Shown piece after piece: positions 4,469-42,794 of a DNA stretch of 44,056 nt. The stretch's first letter is position 1, and each line of letters begins with the position of its first letter. The notes below the pieces were generated by a model, which worked only from the letters and a program-made list of their open reading frames with translations, did no database searches and was not told where the DNA came from. The position numbers were made by a program, and so were the translations under genes. This stretch comes from an uncultured Candidatus Saccharibacteria bacterium (GTDB taxonomy: Bacteria > Patescibacteriota > Minisyncoccia > Phycocordibacterales > GWA1-40-21), in NCBI GenBank assembly GCA_964363425.1, contig CAYIIG010000001.1, positions 1-44,056 on the forward strand, in the 5' to 3' direction.

Positions 4469-5596
4469 ATGAAAATATTATTCACAGGAGGGGGTTCGGG
4501 CGGACATTTTTATCCGATAATCGCGGTAGCGGAAGAGGTTAATCGTATTATAAAAGAAGAGAAGCTCATAGCGCCTCAGCTTTTTTTCATTTCCGATTCG
4601 CCTTACGATGGGAGAGCTCTCGCCGAAAACAATATCGAATTTGTCAAAAATAGCGCCGGCAAGATGAGGAAATATTTTTCTGTTTTAAATCTTGTTGACC
4701 TGTTTAAAACTCTAGTCGGAATTATTTCCGCTATTTTGAAAATTTATCAAATATATCCCGATGTCATTTTCAGCAAAGGAGCATACGCAAGTTTTCCTGC
4801 GCTTGTCGCGGGAAGACTTTTGCGAATTCCCATCGTCATTCACGAATCTGATAGCGCCCCAGGCAGAGTCAACAAATGGTCGGGTAAATTCGCTGAAAAA
4901 ATCGCATTGTCGTACCCGGATGCCGGCGGTTTTTTTGATCCAAAAAAGACGGCTTTCGTCGGAAATCCGGTAAGAAAAGAAATTATGATTCCCATTACTA
5001 CAGGAGCGCGGGAATTTTTGAAACTTGAACCCGACCTGCCCGTCATTCTTATAATGGGAGGTTCTCTCGGCGCCAAAACAATAAACGATGTCGTGTATGA
5101 CGCTTTGCCCGCTTTGGTTGAAAATTATCAAATAATCCACCAGACGGGAAAAAATAATATCAAGGAAGCGACGCAAATGGCGGAGATTGTCCTTGCGGGC
5201 AATCCGAAGAAAAGCAGGTATAAACCATTTGATTATCTGAATAATTTGGCAATAGGTATGTCTGCCGGGGTGGCGGAAATTGTCGTATCAAGGGCGGGGT
5301 CGGCGATTTTTGAAATTGCGATATGGGGAATTCCTTCAATAATTATTCCCATCACGAATTCGATATCTGATCACCAAAGAAAGAACGCTTACAGCTACGC
5401 GAGAAGCGGGGCGGCGATTGTTATCGAAGAATCCAATCTCAATTCTCACATTTTGGTTTCTGAAATCAACAGAATCACCAGCAACAAAAACGAAATGGAC
5501 AGAATGCGAAAAAGCGCCAAAGGATTTTCCAAAGCCGACGCGGCGGAAAAGATAGCTCGAGAAATAATTCACATAGCGATGAAACACGAAAAATAA
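4469..5596 (+). CDS. murG: UDP-N-acetylglucosamine--N-acetylmuramyl-(pentapeptide) pyrophosphoryl-undecaprenol GlcNAc transferase
   Basis: 375 aa; N-terminal GGGSGGHFYP glycine loop, GT28 architecture, dcw-cluster context. Confidence 0.95.
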   Translation: MKILFTGGGSGGHFYPIIAVAEEVNRIIKEEKLIAPQLFFISDSPYDGRALAENNIEFVKNSAGKMRKYFSVLNLVDLFKTLVGIISAILKIYQIYPDVIFSKGAYASFPALVAGRLLRIPIVIHESDSAPGRVNKWSGKFAEKIALSYPDAGGFFDPKKTAFVGNPVRKEIMIPITTGAREFLKLEPDLPVILIMGGSLGAKTINDVVYDALPALVENYQIIHQTGKNNIKEATQMAEIVLAGNPKKSRYKPFDYLNNLAIGMSAGVAEIVVSRAGSAIFEIAIWGIPSIIIPITNSISDHQRKNAYSYARSGAAIVIEESNLNSHILVSEINRITSNKNEMDRMRKSAKGFSKADAAEKIAREIIHIAMKHEK

Positions 5597-9522: not shown

Positions 9523-10032
9523 ATGAAATTAATAATTATAAATGGAAGCTCTTGTTCTGGAAAAAGCACTATTATAAAAAACATAATGAGAGAGAAGAAT
9601 CATTACTTTCACCTATCTTATGATTCTCTTAAGTGGCAATTTTCTCAATATGCCTCTGGTAAATACTATGAGGAGATTCACATGGTTATGGTGTCCATAC
9701 TTGATACTATGTGTAAATTGAAATATAACATAATAAGCGAAGCTCTGAAGAAAGAATCGAGGGAAGAGATTATTGGATTAGCTAAAGAGTATGGATACGA
9801 AGTATTAGAAATTAATCTGGAGGCTGACTGGAAAGTATTATCTGAAAGATTTGACGAGAGGGTAGCAATAGCATTAGCGAATCCAGAAAAAAAAATCGCC
9901 AATCTAAGCAAAGACAGATTCAAAGAACTTTTTGAAAGGTATCAGAATGAAAAAAATCCTTTAGCTCTTACTTTCAGGACAGATACGCAAAGCGTAGAAA
10001 ATGTTTCAAGTGACATAATGAAACTTCTGTAA
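9523..10032 (+). CDS. P-loop NTPase / small-molecule kinase-like protein
   Basis: 169 aa; Walker A INGSSCSGKST at the N-terminus. Size and layout resemble adenylate/shikimate-kinase-like AAA proteins. Specificity unknown. Confidence 0.55.
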   Translation: MKLIIINGSSCSGKSTIIKNIMREKNHYFHLSYDSLKWQFSQYASGKYYEEIHMVMVSILDTMCKLKYNIISEALKKESREEIIGLAKEYGYEVLEINLEADWKVLSERFDERVAIALANPEKKIANLSKDRFKELFERYQNEKNPLALTFRTDTQSVENVSSDIMKLL

Positions 10033-25425: not shown

Positions 25426-27165
25426 CTATTTCACTAATTTCCCGATATCATCAACTTCTTTCTTAATAAATTTCTCGGCATCTTCCACATCTCGTTTAAA
25501 TTGCTTAAGAATCTTATCTTCTTCTTTTGTAAGCTCTCTCTTAGTGTGAGTTTTTTCAAGAATTTTTATGGTTTCTTGCACATTCTCCTTCAATAAATTA
25601 AATGAGTCGCTCACAGCCGATGAGGCTTCTCGCGTTTCTTTTCGAATTCGCTTTTTCAAAAATAGGAATTTATGCCAACTGTACCAAACAAGTACAATAA
25701 TGAGAACTATCAAGGCTATAAGCGGAATAAGGACAGCAAAGAAACTAACAGCCCAAGAACCAATCCGCAAAAACGCTGACTGGATAACCTTGATTGTAAT
25801 TTTCTCACCAGGCAAACTTTTTGCGCCTCTATCACCCTCAACTTCCGCCCAAAATTTGTAGACACCATCTTGCATTTTTTCCTCAGAAACGAAAGTAAAT
25901 TTCCCGTCTTGACCGCTTTTAATAATAAAGCTTCTTTCATTTTCTTTATCCATTTTGAGCCAAACTGTCACTTTGCTATTAGGGTAAGTAGAGCCTTTGG
26001 CAATGAGAGTCTCACCGCTCGTCAATTCTTTTGAATACTCTGTAAAAATCGGCGCCTCTAAAGGCTTAATAATAAATTCCTCGGTGTTGACGGAATAATT
26101 TTCCGCCTTATCAAACGCCTGAACTAAAATATTTCGTTTGCCGGGATTTTGCGGAAGTAATGTATATGGATTAGTTTTCACAATTTCCGGCGCCACATTG
26201 AAAAAATCGCCCTCGCCGATTTTTATTTTGTAATAATTAACGCCGGACAGAGAATCCGTGGTGTCAAAAACCACTGTCGGTCTTGGATTTTCCGTTTCGT
26301 TGCCATCAATGAATTTTATCTTAAATGGCTTTGGCGGTTCCGTGTCAATTTGGAATCGGAAATGGGATATTTCTCCCCAACCTTTAGAGTTACGAAATTG
26401 GGCGTGAAAATAATGGATACCGTCAGTTAAATCAGGTATCTCTTTCTTACTGATGGCTGGCGAATAAACCACAGTTGGTGTGGAGCGAGGAAGATCGCCA
26501 ACCGACAGTCTTACCGCTGTCACATCGTCCGGGACTTTCCATTCAAATGACGAGTCTTTTTTAGAATACCAGCTATTTGGGTCAGAATGAGTTGGTGAGG
26601 ATATTTCCGGAGCGGATGGTGTGCCGTAAACTATAGTGGGAGTGGTTGATTCTGTAATTGTTGAACCTTTACTATCCAGACTAAACCGAGCACTTCCAAG
26701 ACTTTTTAAAATATTAGTACCTTGGCCATCATTGGCAAGCACGGAACCCGATGGGAAATTAAGATCGACGACACCTAATGCTTTTACCTTAAAACTAACC
26801 GTGATAATTTTACCGGAAGAACCCATAAAGCCCGGATTAAGGACTATTCCTTCAAAATTCACAGTGCCTTCCTTATTTGAAAACGACGGCTCCTGAACCC
26901 ATAGAGAAAAGATGGACCCGGATTTGGAAACCGATACAACTTCCAGCTTATCTTGCGGAAATGAAATCACTCCGGACGCGGCATTCAAAGCTTGGTCGGC
27001 GCTTGAAACATACACAGTTGTCGACAACAGGCTTCCGATAGCGTTGGAACCGGAAGAAGGGGAAAAATACAAATTCGCCGCATTAACGACATTTCCAACA
27101 CTGAAAAATGCCAGCAGTAAAATAAAAAATAGTAAAATATATTTTATTTTTTGAATTTTTTCCAT
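25426..27165 (-). CDS. Cohesin-like domain surface protein with a C-terminal TM anchor and cytoplasmic coiled-coil tail
   Basis: Starts at ATG 27165 (MEKIQKIKYILLFFILLLAFFSVGNVVNA signal peptide). N-terminal module: LYFSPSSG...VYVSS...LNAASGVISFPQDKLEVVSVSK...FEGIVLNPGF...GKIITVSFKVKALG...LANDGQGTNIL. Ig-like middle region, TM WAVSFFAVLIPLIALIVLIIVLVW, then a Lys/Glu-rich tail. Confidence 0.65.
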   Translation of the reverse strand: MEKIQKIKYILLFFILLLAFFSVGNVVNAANLYFSPSSGSNAIGSLLSTTVYVSSADQALNAASGVISFPQDKLEVVSVSKSGSIFSLWVQEPSFSNKEGTVNFEGIVLNPGFMGSSGKIITVSFKVKALGVVDLNFPSGSVLANDGQGTNILKSLGSARFSLDSKGSTITESTTPTIVYGTPSAPEISSPTHSDPNSWYSKKDSSFEWKVPDDVTAVRLSVGDLPRSTPTVVYSPAISKKEIPDLTDGIHYFHAQFRNSKGWGEISHFRFQIDTEPPKPFKIKFIDGNETENPRPTVVFDTTDSLSGVNYYKIKIGEGDFFNVAPEIVKTNPYTLLPQNPGKRNILVQAFDKAENYSVNTEEFIIKPLEAPIFTEYSKELTSGETLIAKGSTYPNSKVTVWLKMDKENERSFIIKSGQDGKFTFVSEEKMQDGVYKFWAEVEGDRGAKSLPGEKITIKVIQSAFLRIGSWAVSFFAVLIPLIALIVLIIVLVWYSWHKFLFLKKRIRKETREASSAVSDSFNLLKENVQETIKILEKTHTKRELTKEEDKILKQFKRDVEDAEKFIKKEVDDIGKLVK

Positions 27166-28031
27166 AAAATTTTCCAGACAAGATACACTATAATTAGTAG
27201 CGTTATTATAACAAAGATTGTGTAATCGCCATACCATGCGCTCGCCTTTTGCGCCGAAATCACGACGACTCTTTTATTGCCTGACTTATCAACTGCTTTA
27301 ATAAATATTTTCCTGTCAAGCGGTTGATGTTTTAAAAGATACGGGCTCTCCGAAACACCAAACCAACCCCATTGTCCCTCACGCACTTCATAATGATCAA
27401 TCCCCGATGCTTTATCTTGCGTCGCAAAAACGAGAAAATATTTTCCGGCAAATATGTTTTGGTCGCTCGCAATGGTCGGCTTGAAATCCTCCGGTGGCTC
27501 CGTGTCTGGAGGAATTTGTAATTTGTAACTTGTAACTTGGCTTTCTGATTTTAAAATTCTAAATTCAAAATTCAAAATTTTCGTTTCTGCTTCTGTTCCT
27601 TTTCCATCGTTCCTCAATGCCTTTATATCGCGAATTTCGATTGCGCCACCACCTTCTTTCTTGGCGCGAAAAATGACTGAAAATAAAAGCTCCTTTGTGT
27701 CCGAAAGTCCTCCCGGAGTAATACCTGAAAAAGCAATGACACCTAATTGAAAAGTGTGCGGTTTTTCAATCCAAAAATTGATAGCGGAATTACCATCTAA
27801 GACTTCTTTTATCTCCAGCAAATCGGCAGGAAAAACAATTTTACCCTCAATAGCGTTAATTGATTCTTCTTCCGTATTTAAAAACACCTGCGCCAAAAAT
27901 TCTTCATTCGGCGCGAAAGATTGATTTTTCGCGTCAAAAAATACCTCTACTGCGAAAGCTGGGGTAAACGCAAAAAACAATATGATGCCTAATGATGCGA
28001 TTGTTGTCTTGATTTGTGATATGTGTCTCAT
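27144..28031 (-). CDS. Cohesin-like domain surface protein with a C-terminal TM anchor
   Basis: Starts at ATG 28031 (MRHISQIKTTIASLGIILFFAFTPAFA). Module: VFLNTEEESINAIEGKIVFPADLLEIKEV...IAFSGITPGG...LLFSVIFRAKKEGGGAIEI...LRNDGKGTE. C-terminal TM TIFVIITLLIIVYLVW. Overlaps the next gene by 22 nt. Confidence 0.62.
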   Translation of the reverse strand: MRHISQIKTTIASLGIILFFAFTPAFAVEVFFDAKNQSFAPNEEFLAQVFLNTEEESINAIEGKIVFPADLLEIKEVLDGNSAINFWIEKPHTFQLGVIAFSGITPGGLSDTKELLFSVIFRAKKEGGGAIEIRDIKALRNDGKGTEAETKILNFEFRILKSESQVTSYKLQIPPDTEPPEDFKPTIASDQNIFAGKYFLVFATQDKASGIDHYEVREGQWGWFGVSESPYLLKHQPLDRKIFIKAVDKSGNKRVVVISAQKASAWYGDYTIFVIITLLIIVYLVWKILWKKFKK

Positions 28032-28041
28032 AATATGTGAT

Positions 28042-29100
28042 TTACCCCGTCCAATAAAACGCCAAGATTGAAAAATCAACCAAATTAACCTTGCCGTCTT
28101 TGTTTAAGTCAACGGAAGGTGGCGGAGACGGTCTGTTATGCCAATACGCGGCAATGGAAAAATCAACAATACCAACTTTTTTATCATTGTTTAAATCGCC
28201 TTTTTCCGGCGCTCTTTTAAAATCTTCTGCCAAAATTGTTTTTGTGCCGACAATAAAACTAACAACCTTACTGAAGGAGCTTATCTCTCCATTGAGCGCA
28301 ACTTTAGATTTCGCGGTGTGTTGTCCGATTTCAAGAATAGATGTGTCAAAATTAAACAAATACGCTCCACTTGCGTCAGATATTTTTTTCACAAAAAATT
28401 CTTCTTCCGAATTAACGCTGATAGTAATTTCCGATGCAGGCGTACTTTGTCCAAAAATTACGATGTTTTCGCCTCGTTTTACCTCGCTTTTGTCTACCAC
28501 GATGGTCGGGGCGATAAAAATACCGCTTACTCTGGTGGTCGCGCCGAAAGTGACGCCTACTGGAAAAGTCAAAAGAGAGGAACGGATGCCTTTGTTATCT
28601 TCTGAATAAACCGAGAAAATATAATTTCCGCCGGAAAGATTAGATAGCGTTATTTGAAAATTGGCATCCGCCCCCGCAACTGTAGTGGCGGCAATTTGCG
28701 CGTCTTTGAGAAGGGTTACTACGCTTTTGGGATACGCGCGACCGGAAAAAATGGCTTGTGGCGACTGGCGCGGAAATTCCCCTCCTCCCCCACCACCTCC
28801 TCCGCTGACCGCGGAAGAAGCGCTGGAAGCGCTACTGGAATAACAAGCTACAGTGTTAAATTCGCAAGAAAGTCCGCAAGTCAATGTTCCACTTGAAAAT
28901 CCGCGATTAATGCAAGTCGCTCCTCCTAAAGCAGAACCATCGCATTGTTCCCCGACACCGATTACACCATCTCCGCAAAGGCTTATTTTTATCGTTGCGG
29001 TGATTTCAGCCGCGAAAATTTCCGACCTAAAAAGCGTGGTGAAAATAATTATAAGAATAGATACGAATGTTAAAACGGCATATAAATTTTTGCTGGACAT
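28042..29100 (-). CDS. Secreted dockerin-domain protein with an N-terminal Cys-rich repeat and Gly/Ser linker
   Basis: 352 aa; signal peptide. CGDGVIGVGEQCDG...C...C...C resembles the Myxococcus-type Cys-rich repeat. SSSASSASSAVSGGGGGGGG linker, two Ig-like segments, and a C-terminal duplicated Ca-binding dockerin repeat (GDLNNDKKVGIVDFSIAAYW / VDLNKDGKVNLVDFSILAFYW). Confidence 0.8.
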   Translation of the reverse strand: MSSKNLYAVLTFVSILIIIFTTLFRSEIFAAEITATIKISLCGDGVIGVGEQCDGSALGGATCINRGFSSGTLTCGLSCEFNTVACYSSSASSASSAVSGGGGGGGGEFPRQSPQAIFSGRAYPKSVVTLLKDAQIAATTVAGADANFQITLSNLSGGNYIFSVYSEDNKGIRSSLLTFPVGVTFGATTRVSGIFIAPTIVVDKSEVKRGENIVIFGQSTPASEITISVNSEEEFFVKKISDASGAYLFNFDTSILEIGQHTAKSKVALNGEISSFSKVVSFIVGTKTILAEDFKRAPEKGDLNNDKKVGIVDFSIAAYWHNRPSPPPSVDLNKDGKVNLVDFSILAFYWTG

Positions 29101-29109
29101 TGAACATTA

Positions 29110-29730
29110 TTATTTTCTTACGCCTATGTTGAATGAAAAGAATTTTCTAAAAAGAAAGATGAGAACGGCAAACAAAACAACACCAAGTCCCACCCATGAC
29201 CATGGTGAGTTAATTCTAAAAAACGCCTCGGTTCTATGTAAAACAGCTTGCCAGATGTTCGCGGGCGCCACCGTAAAAAACAATTTTGTAGCGACCGCTA
29301 TGCCGACAGTGGTGCCGGGCTTATCAAGCACCCCCACAGGACCGCTTTCAATAAATGCGAAATAATCACCTTGCTCCGCTTTCACTGGAACAATCATAGT
29401 GACCAAAACTTCTTGGCTTTCTGTGGGCAAAATCGTAAAAGTGGAGGGACTGAAGACAAACCAATCTTTGCGTGGCCGCATCTGGGGATTTTCCTGATGA
29501 TACGCAACCCCCATTCCGTAAGTGGTCGTTTCGTCACCTGTATTGAAAATCCGCAGACTTGGAAGAGTATAGATTTCTCCAGGCTTCACTAATTCCGTCA
29601 ATCGTATTTCTCCCGCTCCTATGCCTACACCGACTTTCGCGGAAACTACAGAGAAATACAGAGAAAATAATGCTGTGAATAGCATGATGGTCGCCAAAAC
29701 GCCTAATGTTATATGTCTAAATAATTTCAT
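29110..29730 (-). CDS. Signal-peptide plus C-terminal-TM beta-sandwich protein (architecture resembles DUF916/DUF3324 anchors of Gram-positive WxL loci)
   Basis: 206 aa; signal peptide ending VVSAKVG. Beta-rich core (IRLTELVKPGEIYTLPSLRIFNTGDETTTY...FTILPTESQEVLVTMIVPVKAEQGDYFAFI). C-terminal TM WVGLGVVLFAVLIFLF followed by RK. Confidence 0.6.
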   Translation of the reverse strand: MKLFRHITLGVLATIMLFTALFSLYFSVVSAKVGVGIGAGEIRLTELVKPGEIYTLPSLRIFNTGDETTTYGMGVAYHQENPQMRPRKDWFVFSPSTFTILPTESQEVLVTMIVPVKAEQGDYFAFIESGPVGVLDKPGTTVGIAVATKLFFTVAPANIWQAVLHRTEAFFRINSPWSWVGLGVVLFAVLIFLFRKFFSFNIGVRK

Positions 29731-29762
29731 TTTTGTATCGTTACGAATAAATATTGTCAGTC

Positions 29763-31673
29763 CTATTCGCTCAAAACATTAATTAATGCATTTGCAGAAT
29801 TAATCAACACATCTGCGGTTATCTGATCAATAATGCCATTCGCAAGATCGTTCTCAGCCTTATTTATAAAAGCATAAAGTTGATTTAAGGCTGGTGTAAT
29901 CTTGCCATCTTCAATAAACTTCTCAACCTTTTTCAGGTTGGAAAGATATGAATTTTCAATATTTGTCGCAAAATCAGCAAGAACTACACTATCAACAATA
30001 TCTACCGCTTGCTCTACCGGTGTTGGATTGTCTCCCACAGTAATAACTACATCAAGTTGAGCTGTCTCTGATGGGGTGCCATTATCAGTTGCAAAAAAAG
30101 AAACGACATATACGCCTCCTTGAGTTAAATCTGGCGTCCAGACAAATACTCCTGTTTCGGCATTAAATATCGCGCCCACAGGCAGAACGCTTGTCGAAAG
30201 AGTTACTATGTCGGTGTCAAGATCAGTAGCCACAACCACAAATTCAAGAAGAGTTTCTTCTTGAATTTCCTGCGGTCCAACAAAATCGAAAATCGGTGCC
30301 CGATTAACATTCCCCACTGTGATAGTAACGAGTTCAACATCAAGCTCCATTGGTGTCCCGTCGTCGGTAACTGTAAATTCAACATCCGTATAATTGCCTG
30401 CGTCTTCAAAGCTCGGTACCCAACTAAATGTTGCTGTATTGGTATCAAATGTTGCTCCTGCCGGTAGGTTGGAGGCACTAAAAGTTAAATTATCGTTGTC
30501 TGAATCAGATGCTGTAATTGTAAACTCAAGAAGTTGTCCCTCTGTCACAATTTTGTTTCCGATTAGGTCAAGAGTAGGTGGAGTATTGATTGGTTGAGAA
30601 TGGATGCCTCCAAATAAGTACACGGAACCCACAAGCTCGGGACTGATACCATCTCTAGGTGCTCCTATGAGTAGATCTCCGTTGAGCGTCGCCACAACAG
30701 AGAAACCAAAGAAGTTATTGTACTCTATGGCTGGGCTATCCATAGTTATAAGCAATTCCCCTGTAATACCATCAAATAGATACGCTGAACCTCCTAGTGT
30801 AGCAAGTGTATAATTATTATATGCCCCAACAAGTAAGTCACCATTTGGTGTTATAGCGACAGAGAAACCAAAGAAATAAGCCTTCTCTGGATATGGATTG
30901 CTTATCGTCAATTTCAGTGCACCTGTAGTACCATCAAACAGATACACTGAACCAGTATCTGTAGCAATAGTATCGTCTAAGCGTGCTGAAATAAGAATGT
31001 CCCCATTTGGCGTTGTGGCAACATGCTCGCCAAACAAATCACCTAACTGTGGAGTTGGGTTATTTACAGTCAGAAGCAATGCACCTGTAGTATTATCAAA
31101 TAGATATGCTGAACCAGCATTACTGGCACCAGTATCATCCGCAGGTGCTCCAACGAGCAGATTTCCATTTGGTGTTACTGCAACAGATGCGCCGAAGCTA
31201 TCCATTTGTTTTGGAGTCGGGTTATTTATAGTTAACTTTAAAGCCCCTGTAGTACCATCAAACAGGTACACTGAGCCAGAGCCGACTTCGCTAGAATTAT
31301 CATATATCGCACCAATCAATAAATCTCCATTTGGTGTCGTGGCAACAGATGCGCCAAAGCGTTCACCGCCTGGCTCCGGTGTTGGATTATTAATAGTCAA
31401 CTTTAACTCACCTGTAATGCCATTAAATAAATATACTGAACCCGTATCCGTAAAGATAGCATCATCAAAAGGTGCTCCAACAAGTAAATCACCATTTGGT
31501 GTTACGGCAATGGCACTACCGAATTTTTCATTGTACAGGGAGGTAGGATTATCAATAGTTAAAAGCAAACCTCCTATTGCCGCTTTCACATAGTATGTAG
31601 TTATCAATAGAGACAATAAGACCATTAACAACATTGTAGACTTAGTAAGGATTTTGAATGACGGTGTTCGCAT
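29763..31673 (-). CDS. FG-GAP repeat beta-propeller protein with two cadherin-like/putative-Ig domains and a C-terminal helical domain
   Basis: Starts at ATG 31673 (MRTPSFKILTKSTMLLMVLLSLL). About six to seven repeats of FG.SVA.TPNGDLL.GA......GSVYLFDG.TG.L.LT..NP. Then two LTFSASNLPAGATFD...FSWVP...AGNY...TDDG modules and a helical tail. Confidence 0.85.
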   Translation of the reverse strand: MRTPSFKILTKSTMLLMVLLSLLITTYYVKAAIGGLLLTIDNPTSLYNEKFGSAIAVTPNGDLLVGAPFDDAIFTDTGSVYLFNGITGELKLTINNPTPEPGGERFGASVATTPNGDLLIGAIYDNSSEVGSGSVYLFDGTTGALKLTINNPTPKQMDSFGASVAVTPNGNLLVGAPADDTGASNAGSAYLFDNTTGALLLTVNNPTPQLGDLFGEHVATTPNGDILISARLDDTIATDTGSVYLFDGTTGALKLTISNPYPEKAYFFGFSVAITPNGDLLVGAYNNYTLATLGGSAYLFDGITGELLITMDSPAIEYNNFFGFSVVATLNGDLLIGAPRDGISPELVGSVYLFGGIHSQPINTPPTLDLIGNKIVTEGQLLEFTITASDSDNDNLTFSASNLPAGATFDTNTATFSWVPSFEDAGNYTDVEFTVTDDGTPMELDVELVTITVGNVNRAPIFDFVGPQEIQEETLLEFVVVATDLDTDIVTLSTSVLPVGAIFNAETGVFVWTPDLTQGGVYVVSFFATDNGTPSETAQLDVVITVGDNPTPVEQAVDIVDSVVLADFATNIENSYLSNLKKVEKFIEDGKITPALNQLYAFINKAENDLANGIIDQITADVLINSANALINVLSE

Positions 31674-31763
31674 ATTTATATTTTTATTGATTAAAGATAC
31701 CATCAAAATAGTACTAAAAAATACTATTGCTTTGCTATTTGCGTATGTCAAACAAACAACTTT

Positions 31764-32219
31764 TTATTGTGATACGACTTGAACGGTGACAGTAATTGAT
31801 TTTTGGGCGAAGTCAGTCGAAACGGTTGGTGTAGTTAACCGAAAATCAAGGTTTTGTGTTACAGCACCGCTAGGGAATGTCGACGAGGCGGTAATGTATG
31901 TAGTATCGTCCGAGAATTTCATATAAGTCGAACCTGTTGTTGTTGAGACTTCGTGGATAAAAAGATTTGATCCAGTAGTTGGGTTAAGTGTCCACTGCGT
32001 TCCGCCTGTGGCATGAGTTGATTTTACATTCAATTTTGCGGCAGAGCCGTCGTTAGTTACTACCTGTGTCTCGCCATTGCCTACGGTAGTAGTTGCGGTA
32101 TTAAGAGCAACCGAACCATAAGCAATATTACCATCAGCAACAGAAACGGCAAGACTAACGGCTGACACTGTCGCAGTAACATTGGCGGTGGTGGCCGCTC
32201 TGGTCATCTGCCACAACAA
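31764..32219 (-). CDS. Small secreted subunit, paralog of the C-terminal domain of the 941-aa protein; 5' end is out of frame with its likely start (ATG 32313) because of a G9 tract
   Basis: The track ORF starts at TTG 32219. Removing one G from 32289-32297 joins it to ATG 32313, adding MKQDFTPPIAFNDFRAYIKIWALVVIIAGGLLLWQ (n-region plus hydrophobic helix). Confidence 0.7.
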   Translation of the reverse strand: MLWQMTRAATTANVTATVSAVSLAVSVADGNIAYGSVALNTATTTVGNGETQVVTNDGSAAKLNVKSTHATGGTQWTLNPTTGSNLFIHEVSTTTGSTYMKFSDDTTYITASSTFPSGAVTQNLDFRLTTPTVSTDFAQKSITVTVQVVSQ

Positions 32220-32415
32220 AAGACCGCCGGCAATAATAACGACAAGTGCCCATATTTTAATATAAGCGCGAAAATCATTGAAAGCGATGGGGGGGGGTAA
32301 AATCTTGTTTCATTTTGTTTTTAAAAAATTTAATTAATAATTATTAAAAAACCGAATTTAATATCAACATTATATCTCGCCAATTATATCAAGCAAGCCC
32401 GAGTTATCCACACCT

Positions 32416-35241
32416 TTATGGCGCCACCGCTTGCACGGTGATAGTGATTGATTTTTGATTATAATCCGTTGACAAACTGGGTGCAGTCAGTCGGAAATCA
32501 AAACTAACCGTTCCGCTTACCGCCACAGACGGCTTAGCGGTAACATAAGTCGCGCTGTCTGGCATTACTGTCCATGTCGAGCCCGTCGTCGTAGAAAATT
32601 CGTGTTTAAATTGATTTGTCCCTATCGTGGAAGCGAGTGTCCAGCCTGTCCCGCCTGTAGCATCACTTGATTTTACATTTAATTTTTCCGCGACATTGCC
32701 GTCGTTGGTCGCAGTCTTGGTATAAGTGGAGCCAATCGTCGTCGTTGAATTGCTTAGACTTACGAAGCCGTAAGTAACATCTCCAGCCGGCGTGACAGAA
32801 ACTGAATAAACCGCAACCGACCTATAACCCCTGTCAGAGGTGGAAATTTGCTGGGTGGCACCCGTGGCATTCTCAACAACTTTAAAATATCTCCCGCTTC
32901 CATCGGATGGCGCGCCTGTATCATCGTAAGTGGAAGCAGTCGCTCCGTCTATGTTTGAATAACTCGCGTCGCTGTCGGCTACCGACCTTTGCCATTGATA
33001 AGTTAGAGAGCCGACTCCGATATACCCGCGGTCATGACTTGTATCAGCCGATGAGGCGCCGGTGGCACTCACTGTGGCATAAAAATATCTTCCGGCTCCG
33101 ATATTGGCGCTTTGCCCGCTTACGCTTAAAGAAACATGGTCTGCGGATGTCCCATCGCTCCCTGTGGCCACACCTGCGGTTATCGTCGGCGACGGCGCAG
33201 TGGCGTCGTCGTAAGGCGCGGTTGTGGCACCGGACAAAATAGAGTGCCCAGAATCCGCGTCCCCCGAGCTTCTGTACCACTGATATGTTAATGAACCTAC
33301 ACCCCGATATCCACGATCCGAAGCTGATATTTGTTGAGTAGCGCCAGTAGCATTAAGAACTGCTTTATAATACCTGCCCGCTCCAACATTAGCCGAAGCG
33401 CCACTAATACTTAGGGTTACTTTATCGGTGGCTGAGCCATCCGTGGCGCTCGCCGTTCCAGATGTGACAGTCGGCGCCGGCGCGGCAGTGTCGGCGTAGG
33501 TAGAGGCAGTCGCCCCTCCAATATCCGAATAGCTCGCGTCACTATCGGCGGCCGATTTTTGCCACTGGTAAGTGAGAGCGCCGACTCCTCGGTACCCGGT
33601 ATTGGTGGCGCTGTCCACGCTACTGCCGGCAGTATTAGAAGCCACCACTTTATATGTATGGGTGGTGCCATTATTGGCTGAGGCGCCGGACAAACTTAAA
33701 TCTACTTGCGCGGTACTCGCGCCATCACCGGCTACCGCCGACCCAGCCGTGATGGTAGGCGCGGCTGCCCCTGTGTCGTTAAATGTCGCCACATCGCCCG
33801 CCGCGCCCAAGTCCACTGCGTCTCGCCAAACATGATAATCAGTTGCTCCGCTAGATTTTGTCCAAGTAATTGTAACCTTGTCTGTATAGGTACCGTCGGT
33901 GGCCACCACATTGGTCGGCGCGTCAGGAACAGGAGTATAAGTCGCGTAAATGGAATACTTGTTGGTGGTGCCAGTAGGTACTAATGGATTTGGCCAAATA
34001 AATGGTCCCGTATTGGCATCCGTCTGCCCTTGACCGGCTGTCCCTACATCATAATAAATAACATGAGTTCCCGAACCGCTACTGCCCCATTCGGCTAATA
34101 TATAATTGGTTCCGCCGGTCAGACTTGGTTTTGTCGCATAAGTAACCGTTCTCCACGCGACGCCTGTTGCCGCTGGTGTTTGCGCGGTACTGCCGCTATT
34201 AGCTATCAAAGCATTGGAAGAGCTCAAATAAATAGCTGTGCCAAAAGTTTTTGCCGTACCCGAAGGATTGCTATAAACAGTTATTGAATCTACCGCCCCA
34301 GCGTTGGTCCCCATAGCAAACACTGAACCTTTTATACTAGCTTCTATTGTTATATTACCAGCCGTGCCTATGGTTTGGTATCCGAAAACCAACCCCGAAG
34401 CGTGATATATCGGATAGACCGCATTATCCAAAAATGTTTGCGGAATAGTAACCGTAAGTTTTTTGGTGGCGACATCTATGTTCAAATCTCCGTAAGTAAA
34501 GTTTCCGGCCGAATCGTCTATTTTCGGTCTGTAAATCTGCCCTACTTTTCCCGTTCCATAATTTTTTCCGCCAACATAGTTTAGAGGAACATTTTTGTAA
34601 TATATGACATACGAGCCCATTGAGTCTTTATTAACAAAGTATTCTTCAATTGCTTTTGCTTCTATCTCCGCGTCGGTATAAATCGGCTGATAGAAAAATT
34701 CCAAATTTTCCATTTCTATGTCAAAACTTAAAACATTCGTTGTCGGTTTTTCATTTAAAATCCGCTCAATCTCATATCCTCCGCCCGGGAGCGTTGAGGA
34801 ATCCGCCAGTTCATAAAAATGGACTTCTTCTTTCGGGGTCTTGTATTTTATTTTATCACCCGCCACATCAAAATCTTTGTCTGCTTCGGTCACTGTTTCC
34901 ATATTCGGAGTTAGCTTAAACCTAACCTCGTCCCATTTTTTAAATTCAAAAGACGGTTCAAAAGAAGATGCGGTTTCGTTGCCGATTCTTACCTCGGTCT
35001 TTTCCTCTTTATCTGCTTTTATGGTTTTATGCAAAGAAGCGCCTCTCATTTCGTACTTACCAGACATCTGGGAAGCGTTAAATTTATTTTTAACCGCCTC
35101 TTTGGAAATTTTATTTGTATCGCCTGTTCCCGTGGCATAAGTCATCGTCTGAGGCCAGCCGGAAAAAGTCCAACTAAAAATTAGAAGGAATATCAACAGA
35201 AATTTTGAAATTTTACTTTTCCACATTTTTGCTATTGACAT
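32416..35241 (-). CDS. Large secreted repeat protein (putative adhesin): N-terminal beta-rich region, tandem repeats of about 96 aa, C-terminal subunit-like domain
   Basis: 941 aa; signal peptide KFLLIFLLIFSWTFSGW. Residues about 441-807 carry repeats with GYRGVG.LTYQW..S..D..Y..I.GAT...Y.D..AP.PT...G.A...DG.S...V.LS.SG.SAN.G. Residues about 808-941 align with the 151-aa protein. Confidence 0.85.
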   Translation of the reverse strand: MSIAKMWKSKISKFLLIFLLIFSWTFSGWPQTMTYATGTGDTNKISKEAVKNKFNASQMSGKYEMRGASLHKTIKADKEEKTEVRIGNETASSFEPSFEFKKWDEVRFKLTPNMETVTEADKDFDVAGDKIKYKTPKEEVHFYELADSSTLPGGGYEIERILNEKPTTNVLSFDIEMENLEFFYQPIYTDAEIEAKAIEEYFVNKDSMGSYVIYYKNVPLNYVGGKNYGTGKVGQIYRPKIDDSAGNFTYGDLNIDVATKKLTVTIPQTFLDNAVYPIYHASGLVFGYQTIGTAGNITIEASIKGSVFAMGTNAGAVDSITVYSNPSGTAKTFGTAIYLSSSNALIANSGSTAQTPAATGVAWRTVTYATKPSLTGGTNYILAEWGSSGSGTHVIYYDVGTAGQGQTDANTGPFIWPNPLVPTGTTNKYSIYATYTPVPDAPTNVVATDGTYTDKVTITWTKSSGATDYHVWRDAVDLGAAGDVATFNDTGAAAPTITAGSAVAGDGASTAQVDLSLSGASANNGTTHTYKVVASNTAGSSVDSATNTGYRGVGALTYQWQKSAADSDASYSDIGGATASTYADTAAPAPTVTSGTASATDGSATDKVTLSISGASANVGAGRYYKAVLNATGATQQISASDRGYRGVGSLTYQWYRSSGDADSGHSILSGATTAPYDDATAPSPTITAGVATGSDGTSADHVSLSVSGQSANIGAGRYFYATVSATGASSADTSHDRGYIGVGSLTYQWQRSVADSDASYSNIDGATASTYDDTGAPSDGSGRYFKVVENATGATQQISTSDRGYRSVAVYSVSVTPAGDVTYGFVSLSNSTTTIGSTYTKTATNDGNVAEKLNVKSSDATGGTGWTLASTIGTNQFKHEFSTTTGSTWTVMPDSATYVTAKPSVAVSGTVSFDFRLTAPSLSTDYNQKSITITVQAVAP
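32821..33921 (-). repeat. Tandem coding repeats (about 290-nt units, three to four units) inside the 941-aa gene
   Basis: Protein-level repeats at residues about 441-551, 552-646, 647-741 and 742-807. The last unit is shorter. The region is Ala/Gly/Thr/Ser-rich and GC-rich. Confidence 0.75.
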
Positions 35242-35311: not shown

Positions 35312-35716
35312 TCATTTATATAGCTTCAAGAATCCTTCTTTTATTTTGTTAAAATCATCACTATCCACCTGACCGAGACGGCTGGAAAGCCTCCTATGGT
35401 CAATGGCACGAATCTGATGAAGGCAAATAAACATATCTTTCCCCGTATGTTTTATGTGAACATACCAGCTCCCTTTGCGTTGTTGTGTTGTCGTCGGAGC
35501 TACAAGAAAAAATGTATGGGATAACTTTTTTAATATCAAGGCGGGACGAGAAAACAATTTGCTTTTTCCGTTCATTTCCGATCCCACATTCTCTCCAAAA
35601 CTAACCCACCACAAATCGCGCTCTTTTACGAGTGGAGGCTCTGCCTCAGTATTATGCAATTTCTCTTTAACTGTCACCCATTCTAAAAATCGTTTAATTA
35701 TATTACTCATAATCAA
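35312..35716 (-). CDS. PemK/MazF-family toxin-like protein (no cognate antitoxin gene seen)
   Basis: 134 aa; RDLWWVSFGENVGSEMNGKSKLFSRPALIL, VAPTTT and HQIRAIDHRRL match MazF/PemK fold signatures. It has an N-terminal extension of about 30 aa. Confidence 0.8.
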   Translation of the reverse strand: MIMSNIIKRFLEWVTVKEKLHNTEAEPPLVKERDLWWVSFGENVGSEMNGKSKLFSRPALILKKLSHTFFLVAPTTTQQRKGSWYVHIKHTGKDMFICLHQIRAIDHRRLSSRLGQVDSDDFNKIKEGFLKLYK

Positions 35717-40029: not shown

Positions 40030-41289
40030 TTATTTCAAATAATTCTCCACGAAACCCGCTAGCTGATTTTCTTCTATTTTTGAAATCTTGCCGGTCGCCC
40101 TTTCTTTTATTTCACAAACACCATCATCCAAATTCTTCTTGCTCACTATAAGTCGAAGCGGTATTCCAATCAAGTCGGAATCTTTGAATTTTTCTCCCGC
40201 TCTCAATTCCCTGTCGTCAAAAAGGACTTCTATCCCGCGATTCGCAAGAATTGAATACACTCGCTCGGATGCTTTTCTCACCTCGGTATTTTCATCGACT
40301 ATTTCCACCAGATGAACGGCAAACGGCGCGACTTTTTTCGGCCAGACTAAGCCATCTTTGTCTGATAAAACTTCCGCAATGGTTCCGACAAGTCGGGTCG
40401 GACCCAGTCCGTAACTTCCCATAACGACAAATTTCTCCTTTCCTTCTTCGTCCAAATACGCCAAGTTTAACGCCTCCGAAAATCTCGTTCCCAAATTAAA
40501 AATATTACCAACCTCTACGGATTTTTTTTCTTTCAAATCGGAAGACTTGCATTTCAGGCACTCTTTTGTGCTTTCAACAACTTCATTATTTATCGCAATC
40601 TTGCATCCATCACAGATGAATATGGTATCCTCCCCAGCTTCTGTAATAGTCTGAAATTCGTCCGAAAACTTACTAAAAGTTCCGCCCGAAGCTGAGGTGA
40701 TATAAGTCATCTCGCCGATACCCACCTTATCGAATATATTCATATAAGCAATCTTGGCTTTTTCGTAAAAAAGGCTGTGTTCTTTTTCATTTCTCGAAAA
40801 TGAATAAAGGTCTTTCATAAGAAATTCCCGTCCTCTCATAATCCCGCTTTTCGCCCTTGTTTCGTTTCGAAATTTTGTCTGTATTTGATAAGGATAAAGA
40901 GGCAAATCGCGAAACGACCTGATGTGGTTTTTCATAAGCGCGGTAAGCGGTTCTTCGTGCGTAAATCCAAGCCCGAGCTCAGTCCCGCTTTTTAACTTGG
41001 TCTTAAACCAATTATCGACGACGGCATCATCCCATCTTCCTGTCTTTTCCCAAAGCTCTTTATCCTGAAGTGTTGTCAAAAGCATTTCCTGCCCGCCGAT
41101 CGCGTTCATCTCTTCGCGAATTATATTATTCACTTTATTGAGAACGCGGAGACCGAGAGGCAAGAAAGAATAAACTCCCGCCATTTCTTTGTGGATAAAA
41201 CCGGCGCGAATCAGCAACTCGGCATTTTTCGACACCTCATCCTTCGGCGCTTCTTTTCTGGTTTTCGACAATAATTGAGATTGCTTCAT
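40030..41289 (-). CDS. proS: Prolyl-tRNA synthetase, short bacterial-type form lacking the INS editing domain
   Basis: 419 aa; class II motifs (LRVLNKV...EMLLTTLQ, FRNETRAKSGIMRGREFLMKD, GSYGLG) and a C-terminal anticodon-binding domain. A CxxC...CxxC segment sits where INS normally lies. Confidence 0.9.
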   Translation of the reverse strand: MKQSQLLSKTRKEAPKDEVSKNAELLIRAGFIHKEMAGVYSFLPLGLRVLNKVNNIIREEMNAIGGQEMLLTTLQDKELWEKTGRWDDAVVDNWFKTKLKSGTELGLGFTHEEPLTALMKNHIRSFRDLPLYPYQIQTKFRNETRAKSGIMRGREFLMKDLYSFSRNEKEHSLFYEKAKIAYMNIFDKVGIGEMTYITSASGGTFSKFSDEFQTITEAGEDTIFICDGCKIAINNEVVESTKECLKCKSSDLKEKKSVEVGNIFNLGTRFSEALNLAYLDEEGKEKFVVMGSYGLGPTRLVGTIAEVLSDKDGLVWPKKVAPFAVHLVEIVDENTEVRKASERVYSILANRGIEVLFDDRELRAGEKFKDSDLIGIPLRLIVSKKNLDDGVCEIKERATGKISKIEENQLAGFVENYLK

Positions 41290-41297
41290 AAATATAA

Positions 41298-42794
41298 TTA
41301 TTTAGTGAAATTAAATAATTCCAAAAATTTTCTAAAGTAAGTTTTCCAATCATTCGTGACCGCGGAAGATGTGGAGTATGATAATCTTGGTGAAGATGAA
41401 CTTGCAACCTCCAGTGAAAAACTGTTACTCAAAGGAATATTAGTGTCTGTTTGTTTAACACTGACAGTATGGGAACCTAAACTCACACCAAGCGGAATAA
41501 CAAAACTAATTGTATTTGGTGTTAAAGAAAAAGGCTTGATATTTACCCAATTACCGCTTTCCGCGTCAAGAACAACGAAAGAGTCTTTTTCAAAATGAAA
41601 GCCTTGAATATACACAGGATTACCATAGGTGATTTCTCCTGGAACAAGGCTGTAAATAAACGGCTGATGCTGCGCAGAAATAGTAAATGGGGCATCAGAT
41701 TCATCCACAACGCCATCTCCAAAAATTTCTATTTTAAAATTAGAATTTCCCAAAAAATCGGGTGGAATAGTCCACTCATAAGAGCCTGTGTTAGGCACAT
41801 TCCCAATACCCAATACGCTGTTATTCTCTCGTAAAAGATTCAGTCCAACATAAGTGGGCTTATCACCATAAGGTGTCCATTTTATCCAATAACTCTCGCC
41901 CGCCTCAAACATCTCGCCACCATTCGGCGAAAGAATCGTAATTGACGTGGTTATTGGAACAAACCTGCCAGCTTCGCAAATATATCCCTCTGGCGCAAAA
42001 ACACCATTTGCGCCCAGTCTCCCATCTGACTCAATATAGGCCTCATTAAGAGATTTTTCACTAGAACAATGGTCGTAAAAAATTGTGAAATTATCGGATG
42101 TCGATTTGCATGAAGTTGGATCAGGCTCTACTCCATACAGACACGAAACACTTCCTCCCGCATATGTACCCTTGCCTACACCTGTAATAAATAAGTCAGG
42201 ATTTTTTTCCGGCGTAATTGGAAGGGGATCATTAATGTGAGTGTAATCAGGACTATTATCAGAATCAGTTGCGGTTATGTCAGTCTCTTTGCATCCATAC
42301 AAGTAATTTAATTTATCCCTTGTGGATTGACCGACGAAGCCGTTGCCATATTGAAGATTATTTGGAATTAAAATCTCGTATTTGTATTTCATTTGAAAAC
42401 CTGAAACCAAAGAAGCGAGTTTTTCGTCAAAATAAGCCGTCGGTTCTTGTTCATTTGTTTCAATTATTCCAGTGTCAAAGCCATCTTTCTGCAAAGCGAT
42501 TTGAAGATTGTAGACATCGTTGTTTTCATCTCCTGTGTTTAAATTATTATCGAAATTGTAACACCATCGAGATGAATCATTCTGCAAATTGGCAAGGTGT
42601 TTTTGAAAAAAATCAATTAGAGCTTGAGTCTTTTCTGCTTCGCTCGGGGAAGGTAGGTCTGAAATATCAGCAAAAGAAAAATTTGGAATAACAGAAAATC
42701 CTGCCATCACCATAACCATCATCAAGAAAAAAAACTTGACGCAATTTAATTTTATAAAATAATTTATTTTCGTCGACAATCGAGATTGCTTCAT
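41298..42794 (-). CDS. Secreted multi-domain protein (PG-binding-like, Kre9/KNH-like and IPT/TIG-like segments)
   Basis: 498 aa; hydrophobic signal FFFLMMVMVMAGFSVIPNFSFA. VYNLQIALQKDGFDTG is PG_binding_1-like. ITILSPNGGEMFEAGESYWIKW...GSYEWTIP is Kre9/KNH-like. IYSLVPGEITYGNPVYIQGFHF is IPT-like. The first 9 codons copy the proS start. Confidence 0.7.
   Translation of the reverse strand: MKQSRLSTKINYFIKLNCVKFFFLMMVMVMAGFSVIPNFSFADISDLPSPSEAEKTQALIDFFQKHLANLQNDSSRWCYNFDNNLNTGDENNDVYNLQIALQKDGFDTGIIETNEQEPTAYFDEKLASLVSGFQMKYKYEILIPNNLQYGNGFVGQSTRDKLNYLYGCKETDITATDSDNSPDYTHINDPLPITPEKNPDLFITGVGKGTYAGGSVSCLYGVEPDPTSCKSTSDNFTIFYDHCSSEKSLNEAYIESDGRLGANGVFAPEGYICEAGRFVPITTSITILSPNGGEMFEAGESYWIKWTPYGDKPTYVGLNLLRENNSVLGIGNVPNTGSYEWTIPPDFLGNSNFKIEIFGDGVVDESDAPFTISAQHQPFIYSLVPGEITYGNPVYIQGFHFEKDSFVVLDAESGNWVNIKPFSLTPNTISFVIPLGVSLGSHTVSVKQTDTNIPLSNSFSLEVASSSSPRLSYSTSSAVTNDWKTYFRKFLELFNFTK

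Follow-up and report, generated by a model that had tools for sequence, protein, structure and literature searches.

WxL clusters of Lactobacillales and Bacillales encode two WxL proteins, one small and one large, as well as the membrane protein WxLIP, which has the arrangement DUF916-DUF3324-membrane helix (PMC10599100, PMC9772566, PMC1534035). WxLIP consists of two immunoglobulin (Ig) domains and the membrane helix (PMC9772566, PMC10599100), and in AlphaFold predictions the WxL sandwich is completed by strand insertion of a hairpin from WxLIP (PMC10599100). WxL domains are reported to bind peptidoglycan, and WxL proteins have been described as a peptidoglycan-bound platform, not as a polymer (PMC9772566). 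In this study, we analysed seven genes, G1 to G7, that fill positions 25426-35241 of the window, a stretch of 44,056 bp from an uncultured Candidatus Saccharibacteria bacterium. The window is a complete metagenome contig, and the same protein sequences occur on contigs of the Hainich groundwater well H43. With a probability of roughly 0.55, we propose that the locus encodes a Patescibacterial surface adhesion complex of two adjacent modules, A on B, with a phase-switched small subunit. Module A would comprise G1, G2 and G4, and module B G5, G6 and G7.

The seven open reading frames (ORFs) are all on the minus strand and co-directional. Counted from their ATG starts, they are separated by spacers of 102, 90, 32, 9 and 10 nt and by one 22-nt overlap, which reproduces exactly the consecutive genes and spacers given in the initial annotation of the window. 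A signal-like hydrophobic segment was found at the N-terminus of all seven proteins, and G4, G6 and G7 have a C-terminal membrane helix as well. The statement that all seven proteins are exported is borne out to this extent, but G2 as sequenced is frameshifted at a run of nine C residues (C9), which had gone unnoticed. Pfam and NCBIfam scans gave no scoring enzyme, transporter or regulator family in G1-G7, in agreement with the initial annotation, and neither an LPxTG motif nor a prepilin (G-F-T-L-I-E) leader was present in any of the seven proteins.

Six of the seven genes, all but G3, form a cluster that is conserved in more than 100 Patescibacteria loci. The conserved order is the large protein, the small protein, the ~206-aa G4 protein, the dockerin protein, a ~290-aa cohesin-like protein and, optionally, a second cohesin protein of ~580 aa. 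All 20 genome loci, of which 17 distinct ones come from GTDB species genomes and 3 were added to these, keep this order wherever the flanks reach far enough. Among metagenome loci, which were collected by a G7-based search, 61 of the 63 with room have G6 directly upstream of G7, and 43 of 44 have G5 directly upstream of G6; the sampling of loci via peptide patterns is biased. Since the same gene order recurs across loci, the arrangement is not due to chance, and the neighbourhood search in Patescibacteria genomes that had been proposed as a check gave co-conservation of every family except that of G3.

G2/G4-type genes were found farther upstream of G5-G6-G7 in only 10 of 28 such metagenome loci. 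The remaining loci that were inspected carry analogous trios, in which a large and a small protein with a different common C-terminal domain are followed by an Ig-membrane protein of 290-335 aa. Because these other matched trios precede the same G5-G6-G7 genes, module A is, on gene order, exchangeable and module B constant. Another module type upstream of the same dockerin/cohesin trio was seen at L031:1764-8880 and L073:2991-7427. Here both the small and the large protein have ...GDWTLQGVSISQKIPAEQPAASDY.I.MVLT... at the end. The Ig protein of this type, which ends with LysM instead of a membrane helix, gave the best match to WxLIP_PGBD (E 2.7e-5).

G1 (32416..35241, minus strand) is a large polymorphic surface protein of 941 aa, in which a long signal peptide and a variable N-terminal head precede ~3.7 Ig-like repeats, each 95 aa long, and the 'subunit' domain at the C-terminus; Pfam gave a SCAB-Ig match of 29 bits. 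Sequence comparison showed that this C-terminal domain (aa 811-941; 32419..32811, minus strand) is a paralogue of G2, with 56% identity over 124 aa (E 6e-36), and the subunit/adhesin pair named in the initial annotation is thereby confirmed. A search with the G2 profile returned 893 cluster representatives with E<=0.001, and among the 150 matches listed the G2-type domain forms the extreme C-terminus in all large proteins. The heads of these large proteins differ and include Gly_rich_2, DUF7483, DUF2341, MAM, Laminin_G_3, FG-GAP_2 and BNR; carbohydrate-related domains (BNR, CHB_HEX_C and GH114_assoc) occur in some large proteins elsewhere.

The small-subunit gene G2 (31764..32313, minus strand) starts at ATG 32313 and is frameshifted at C9, which leaves an ORF at 31764-32219. 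After signal cleavage the mature protein would have ~140 aa; it is Thr/Ser-rich and contains a single invariant W-T-L. G2 has 225 homologues; leaving aside the 147-aa product of the window itself, the identity of those listed is 54-88%. All sources that give a taxon are Patescibacteria (Kaiser-, Vogel-, Zambryski- and Campbellbacteria, and Minisyncoccia). None of the homologues carries a Pfam family. WxL gave no match for G1 or G2 at E<=0.1, nor for 44 G2 homologues at E<=10, where only weak Fn3-like matches appeared. The AlphaFold2 model of G2 is a beta-sandwich with a mean predicted local distance difference test score (pLDDT) of 66, in which the conserved N-terminal 42 residues are unplaced. 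In a manual alignment, ATTANVTATV, the first ~10 residues of mature G2, corresponds to linker sequence in G1; the highly conserved residues that follow ATTANVTATV belong to the unplaced part of the model. A PDB search with the G2 profile gave no matches, and single-sequence PDB searches of G2, G4 and G7 gave nothing useful.

In G4 (29110..29730, minus strand), a signal peptide is followed by a single Ig domain of PapD-like/WxLIP-like type, and the protein ends with an amphipathic helix and a membrane helix. This protein of ~206 aa is conserved better than any other of the cluster (orthologue identity 54-84%). Its AlphaFold2 model (mean pLDDT 82) is a sandwich of seven to eight strands followed by the amphipathic helix and the membrane helix. 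Comparison of this model with the PDB by Foldseek gave 104 matches at E<=1e-3. The leading ones (E 3e-6 to 2e-4) are ASH/PapD-like domains and the chaperones DraB, FaeE, SfaE, FimC, Caf1M and SafB, in which it is the N-terminal domain that corresponds to the fold of G4. The model also matched the Enterococcus faecium WxLIP entries 9i1y and 9i25 (E ~5e-5 to 1e-4, probability 1.0), and 9i25 is WxLIP bound to a long WxL protein. Residues ~132-145 (ESGPV...PGTTVGIAV) form a conserved loop that is modelled with lower confidence (block mean pLDDT 63-73).

Profile comparisons of G4 gave sub-threshold Pfam matches, whose E-values are suggestive only. Among 19 G4 orthologues, fn3_5 was matched by 19, the OCRL ASH domain by 11, the HYDIN/VesB Ig domain by 9 and PapD_N by 8, and one orthologue is annotated as a PapD chaperone by JGI. 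With hhalign, G4 corresponds to the N-terminal domain of two-domain Ig-membrane relatives from the Candidate Phyla Radiation (CPR), with a probability of 97.5% and E 5e-12. PF06030 (WxLIP_PGBD, formerly DUF916) matched four of five such two-domain relatives below threshold (E 2.7e-5 to 0.054; best match 24.6 bits against a cut-off of 27.3), with no match to G4 itself or its orthologues. The two-domain Ig-membrane profile run against the PDB returned only spurious matches to repeat proteins ("Pizza"). The profile check for WxL and DUF916 proposed in the initial annotation was the productive lead; WxL itself gave no match. The corresponding checks for DUF3324 (Pfam) and TasA/camelysin (Pfam, NCBIfam) returned no match in the seven proteins; Pfam and NCBIfam gave G2 no support as a pilin or as a member of the TasA/camelysin family (Peptidase_M73), and no such Pfam match occurs in the locus, nor one to a family of sortase pili or type IV pili.

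The locus resembles WxL/Csc clusters in several respects. The large and the small protein share a C-terminal beta-sandwich, the large protein has variable heads (host-binding in WxL), an Ig-fold protein with a C-terminal membrane helix adjoins them, and all components are exported. In addition, the common domain has a conserved W-x-L triplet, and G4 matches the two WxLIP structures. In contrast to WxL domains, G2 has one triplet instead of two, while the large proteins add W-T-V/x-F ~22 residues further on, and the common domain is shorter, at ~125-140 aa compared with 160-190 aa. An LPxTG protein, which is frequent and not obligatory in WxL clusters, is absent, as is a sortase. The dockerin protein and the one or two cohesin membrane proteins are absent from WxL clusters, and the hosts here are Patescibacteria. 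We take the locus to work like a WxL cluster and to be probably a remote relative of one, without being a member. We do not treat it as a member because PF13731, two WxL motifs, a two-Ig WxLIP and an LPxTG partner are all missing. The initial annotation knew of no described system of this composition. This no longer holds for the large/small/Ig-membrane trio, which parallels WxL/Csc; it does hold for the fusion with a dockerin/cohesin trio, since searches of the literature on CPR bacteria with cohesin/dockerin or WxL found no description of the combination.

Module B begins with G5 (28042..29100, minus strand), a secreted protein whose N-terminus is rich in Cys and which has Ig (Big_6-like) domains and, at the C-terminus, a type I dockerin. 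The dockerin (nt 28060-28203) scored 27.7 bits with Dockerin_1 (PF00404) against a cut-off of 22.9, in support of the original assignment. It contains two DxNxDxxV...D repeats of the Ca-loop type, the only ones in the window, and PF00404 is precomputed on G5 orthologues. G6 (27144..28031/28079, minus strand) has a signal peptide, a cohesin-like domain, a DUF7743/Fn3-like domain and a C-terminal membrane helix. G7 (25426..27165/27237, minus strand) has a signal peptide, a cohesin (nt 26764-27048), a DUF7743-like domain, a Big_13 Ig domain (29.8 bits), a membrane helix (nt 25654-25776) and a cytoplasmic tail (nt 25429-25653), and is paralogous to G6 across two extracellular domains.

The two proteins had been called cohesin-like, and this assignment is supported at the family level. 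The Pfam Cohesin scores of G6 and G7 themselves are 13.3 and 17.5 bits, below the cut-off of 24.1, but of the 120 G7 orthologues listed, which are 54-88% identical, ~25 have a precomputed PF00963, and one G7 orthologue is named cohesin domain-containing protein by NCBI. The G6 family profile matched three Ruminococcus scaffoldin cohesins in the PDB weakly (E 0.07-0.45). More than 1600 relatives of the cohesin protein were detected. In two metagenome loci (L093:2995-5616 and L101:5483-8092), G6 and G7 are fused in one two-cohesin protein of ~870 aa, which supports the idea that they act together. The tail of G7 (~75 aa) is conserved, charged and K/E-rich; it is probably a coiled-coil by sequence and may couple the surface complex to something inside the cell. 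The only related item that the literature searches gave is SEML1_0315, an envelope protein with a dockerin domain in Southlakia epibionticum, a Saccharibacterium that can be cultivated. SEML1_0315 is essential by transposon sequencing (PMC10633639) and might be a counterpart of G5.

The arrangement resembles cohesin-dockerin systems in that a type I dockerin protein is encoded with membrane-anchored cohesin partners immediately downstream; the charged and probably coiled-coil cytoplasmic tail of G7 sets it apart from them. A cellulosome-like complex that degrades polysaccharides through cohesin-dockerin pairs is very improbable. The dockerin and cohesin domains are present, and some large proteins elsewhere carry the carbohydrate-related domains listed above. 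However, no glycoside hydrolase or other catalytic family occurs in the seven proteins, and the 44-kb window has a single dockerin. Whereas cellulosomes use multi-cohesin scaffoldins with SLH or sortase anchoring, each anchoring protein here has one cohesin and a membrane helix.

The reading frame of G2 depends on its C9 tract (32289..32297, minus strand), which spans codons 6-8 and lies between the signal-peptide codons and the mature protein. As C9 puts ATG 32313 out of frame with the mature protein, G2 as sequenced does not encode an intact exported protein. A C8 or C11 tract would restore MKQDFTPPIAF... and the signal peptide, and the homologue P0018 starts with MKQNFTPPIA. C9 is the sole G/C run of at least 7 nt in the 44-kb window, and an identical C9 was found in five further contigs from other samples.

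Related G2-type genes carry runs of G6 to G10 in the Gly codons of the signal peptide, and the C9 of the window lies in Thr-Pro-Pro codons. The small-subunit tracts of four loci are in frame, with 9 G in L004 (5969-5977), 10 G in L011 (1049-1058), 8 G in L015 (3756-3763) and 7 G in L016 (2186-2192), and the 7-G tract of L005 (1905-1911) is out of frame. P0017 contigs from the Rifle aquifer (L108-L114) also have an out-of-frame 7-G tract (L108:~560), a result that covers 7 of 24 Rifle contigs. These contigs are close to L004, with mature regions ~90% identical by eye, and the 9-G tract of L004 is in frame. In L027, a small-subunit gene of a different subunit type is frameshifted at a 9-G run (4883-4891). 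In 1.03 Mb of loci there are only 25 G/C runs of at least 7 nt, and the 5' ends of 24 G2-type genes account for 5 of these (binomial probability ~3e-8, with the genes phylogenetically non-independent). Several database gene calls are N-terminally truncated or start in another frame because of the frameshifts that tract length causes.

These tracts make the small-subunit gene a candidate for phase switching by strand slippage. Phase variation of pilin and pilus genes is a classic theme, with Neisseria pilC as an example. As in the poly-G tract of pilC and other contingency genes, a G/C homopolymer lies in the signal-peptide codons of a gene for a surface structure, and in-frame and out-of-frame lengths occur in related populations, here known from sequence only. 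The differences are that the lineage is an uncultured CPR one and that the tracts lie at different codons in each lineage. We found no account of homopolymer-based switching in the literature on CPR phase variation.

G3 (29763..31673/31751, minus strand) encodes an FG-GAP beta-propeller and two Ig domains of the He_PIG type, and its C-terminus is helical. The propeller recognised in the initial annotation is clear (Pfam FG-GAP_2 6e-39, He_PIG 5e-19), but the cadherin-like domains described with it are weak, with Cadherin_5 sub-threshold at 0.0014. G3 had also been counted as part of the system, which could not be upheld. None of the 20 genome loci and none of the 80 metagenome loci has it, and a G3 gene beside G2 was seen solely in contigs of the window's own population. 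Absence from all related loci rules G3 out as a core component, and gene content identifies it as a lineage-specific insertion outside the conserved cluster. One unrelated large protein joins an FG-GAP head to a G2-type domain.

The gene content, the paralogy, the folds and domains, the synteny and the frameshift with its variable tract length are shown by these data. From them we infer which components bind one another, how module A is connected to module B and that the function is adhesive. Module A would follow the logic of WxL/Csc clusters. The variable N-terminal head of G1 would be the ligand-binding part, and G2 would consist only of the domain that also ends G1. At the outer face of the membrane, G4 would capture and stabilise the common C-terminal beta-sandwich of G1 and G2 by beta-strand complementation, with either the G4 loop at ~132-145 or the conserved alternating N-terminal strand of G2 filling the sheet of its partner. 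A strand exchange induced by binding would fit, because the G4 loop is of lower confidence and the N-terminal stretch of G2 is unplaced. Module B would form the constant base, in which the secreted G5 docks through its dockerin on the membrane-anchored cohesins of G6 and G7. G3 would be an extra adhesin acquired in this lineage only. Expression of the small subunit would be switched by slipped-strand changes of the tract in the signal-peptide codons and would be OFF, at C9, in the population of the window.

Several points weigh against such an adhesion complex. Modules A and B appear linked by gene adjacency alone. G4 has one Ig domain and WxLIP has two, and G2 falls short of a WxL domain both in length and in its single invariant WxL triplet, where two would be expected. 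WxL (PF13731) and DUF3324 did not score in the seven proteins, and PF06030 was sub-threshold and confined to the two-domain relatives of G4. The G2 model, which is poor at its mean pLDDT of 66, had no significant Foldseek match in the PDB. The similarity of the G4 fold is no proof of function, because the Foldseek template modelling (TM) scores are modest (0.3-0.6) and the PapD-like fold is widespread. Two cohesins also stand against one dockerin in the locus. Finally, the tract-length differences could in principle be assembly artefacts, which is argued against by the recurrence of the same C9 in the five further contigs from other samples.

The initial annotation had proposed an attachment or fibre apparatus. 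A co-conserved, exported and membrane-anchored CPR surface system stands, and a fibre is possible only. A true polymeric fibre would be a chaperone-assisted, usher-free donor-strand pilus of a single-membrane cell, with G2 as the major subunit, which would polymerise by way of its conserved alternating N-terminal strand, G1 as a FimH-like two-domain tip adhesin, G4 as a membrane-tethered PapD-like chaperone and the cohesin-dockerin pair as the basal anchor. We regard it as a tentative alternative that is unlikely to apply. Like chaperone-usher systems, the locus has a PapD-like Ig fold in G4, which matches pilus chaperones and is annotated as one in the JGI orthologue, an adhesin with a variable head and a C-terminal subunit-like domain, and in G2 a small, conserved candidate major subunit with an alternating N-terminal strand. 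Among the best Foldseek matches of the G2 model are CS20, FimA, PapE, Csu and FimG, all of them pilins of chaperone-usher systems; these matches are non-significant, and no other structural match of G2 reached significance. G2 is unusually conserved for a surface protein (54-88% across candidate phyla), and upstream of its gene there are a separate promoter-like site and a conserved region. The replacement of ATTANVTATV by linker in G1 and the 42 unplaced N-terminal residues are as expected for an exchanged strand, but in many large proteins the profile match reaches the supposed donor-strand positions, so that an N-terminal extension specific to the small subunit is ambiguous. The phase-variable pilus genes mentioned above would also suit a fibre. 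In contrast to chaperone-usher systems, however, there is no outer membrane and no usher or other polymerisation catalyst; the usher family did not score in any scanned ORF of the window. G4 is single-domain and membrane-tethered whereas the chaperones have two Ig domains, and the related WxL proteins are described as a platform and not a polymer. The complete proposal of an usher-independent donor-strand pilus, with a tethered G4, G2 as subunit, exchangeable G1 tips, a cohesin-dockerin root and the phase switch, is one that we rate as rather doubtful.

A structural layer of the envelope or cell wall, in which G2 and G1 would coat or bind peptidoglycan and cohesin and dockerin would organise the envelope with no specific role in host attachment, seems improbable to us. 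The reported peptidoglycan binding of WxL domains, the LysM of the alternative-type Ig protein in place of a membrane helix and the high conservation of G2 would all agree with it. Against it, the hypervariable heads of the large proteins (lectin-like, propeller, MAM, LamG) are typical of ligand binding, and a small subunit that is OFF in whole populations would be dispensable. The neighbourhood would speak for such a layer as well, since the locus of the window adjoins mreBCD-PBP2 and L015 has mreB ~4 kb off, but the flanking genes vary between genomes and the mre neighbourhood is probably coincidental. The adhesion complex of two modules remains our preferred explanation.

Other features of the locus concern G1 and the region behind its gene. 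The G1 repeat region (aa 441-805; 32827..33921, minus strand) is the sole GC-rich stretch of the locus, at 55.6% GC, and the remaining six genes have the average GC of the window. Its GC is 58% at codon positions 1 and 2 and 50% at position 3, and its protein composition is 17% Ala, 14% Ser, 13% Thr and 12% Gly. GYRGVGxLTYQW occurs three times at a spacing of 95 aa, and a truncated fourth copy, GYRSVA (aa 805), lies 66 aa beyond. Tandem Repeats Finder detected no DNA-level repeats within the locus. The initial annotation took the GC-rich upstream half for an accessory island, and composition gives no support for this, as the raised GC is confined to the G1 repeat segment and lies mainly in codon positions 1 and 2. 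Residues 1-31 of G1 (35149-35241) are a signal peptide with W-x-F-S-G-W-P-Q-I-W-x-F-P-P...A-x-A. This motif was also found in otherwise unrelated large proteins of L027, L034, L045, L055, L057 and L101, and a strict form of it in 17 of 64 diverse large proteins, a distribution that suggests a dedicated sorting or processing signal.

A DnaA-box-like 9-mer, TTATCCACA, is located at 32404..32412. It follows the G1 stop by 4 nt, precedes the G2 ATG by 91 nt and shares sequence with a promoter-like site (TGGATA-16-TATAAT). At least 12 other loci have this 9-mer between their large and small genes, in either orientation and with other subunit types included; examples are L004:5816, L005:1753, L013:1637, L015:3677, L016:2051, L019:9915, L024:1060, L027:4720, L033:461, L045:4074 and L055:5964. 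In 1.1 Mb of loci it was found 44 times, against ~8 matches expected. It may be a binding site for a regulator or, in one orientation, a -35 element. A second copy in the window, at 41190-41198, lies ~100 nt past the stop codon of another exported protein (41298-42794), which has 498 aa and carries Kre9/KNH-like Ig and PG_binding_1 domains. Promoter and terminator scans of the locus were overall not above shuffled expectation.

The rest of the window has housekeeping content, with mraY, an ftsW/rodA-family gene, murG, mreBCD, PBP2, several tRNA synthetases and dgkA. The genes reported to flank the locus, dgkA, mazF, mrdA (PBP2), mreC and mreB, were verified. Flanking genes are not common to different genomes, and the conserved genomic position (the rodA slot) was dropped as evidence because they differ even in the closest relative, L004. 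Directly upstream of the cluster there is a solitary gene for a MazF/PemK-like toxin (35312-35716), for which no antitoxin ORF is obvious; a zeta-toxin/AAA_33-like gene is found elsewhere in the window (9523-10032). Rfam identified just two tRNAs in the window, both outside the locus.

Most Patescibacteria are thought to live attached to other cells, and beyond the type IV pili of Saccharibacteria their attachment molecules are essentially unknown. The cluster is a strong candidate for an attachment or recognition system, because it is widespread, modular (with exchangeable heads and subunit types on a constant base) and apparently phase-variable. If the phase switch is borne out, it would be the first indication that we have found of homopolymer-based phase variation in CPR genomes. 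If the donor-strand pilus were true, the structure would be a candidate for the organelle with which episymbiotic CPR cells attach to hosts, and it would form an evolutionary bridge from chaperone-usher pili to the WxL complexes of Gram-positive bacteria. For the preferred adhesion complex, the WxL/WxLIP principle would be extended far outside Firmicutes and tied structurally to PapD-type chaperones. As the proteins are small and rich in soluble domains, the proposed interactions should be testable in vitro without cultivation.

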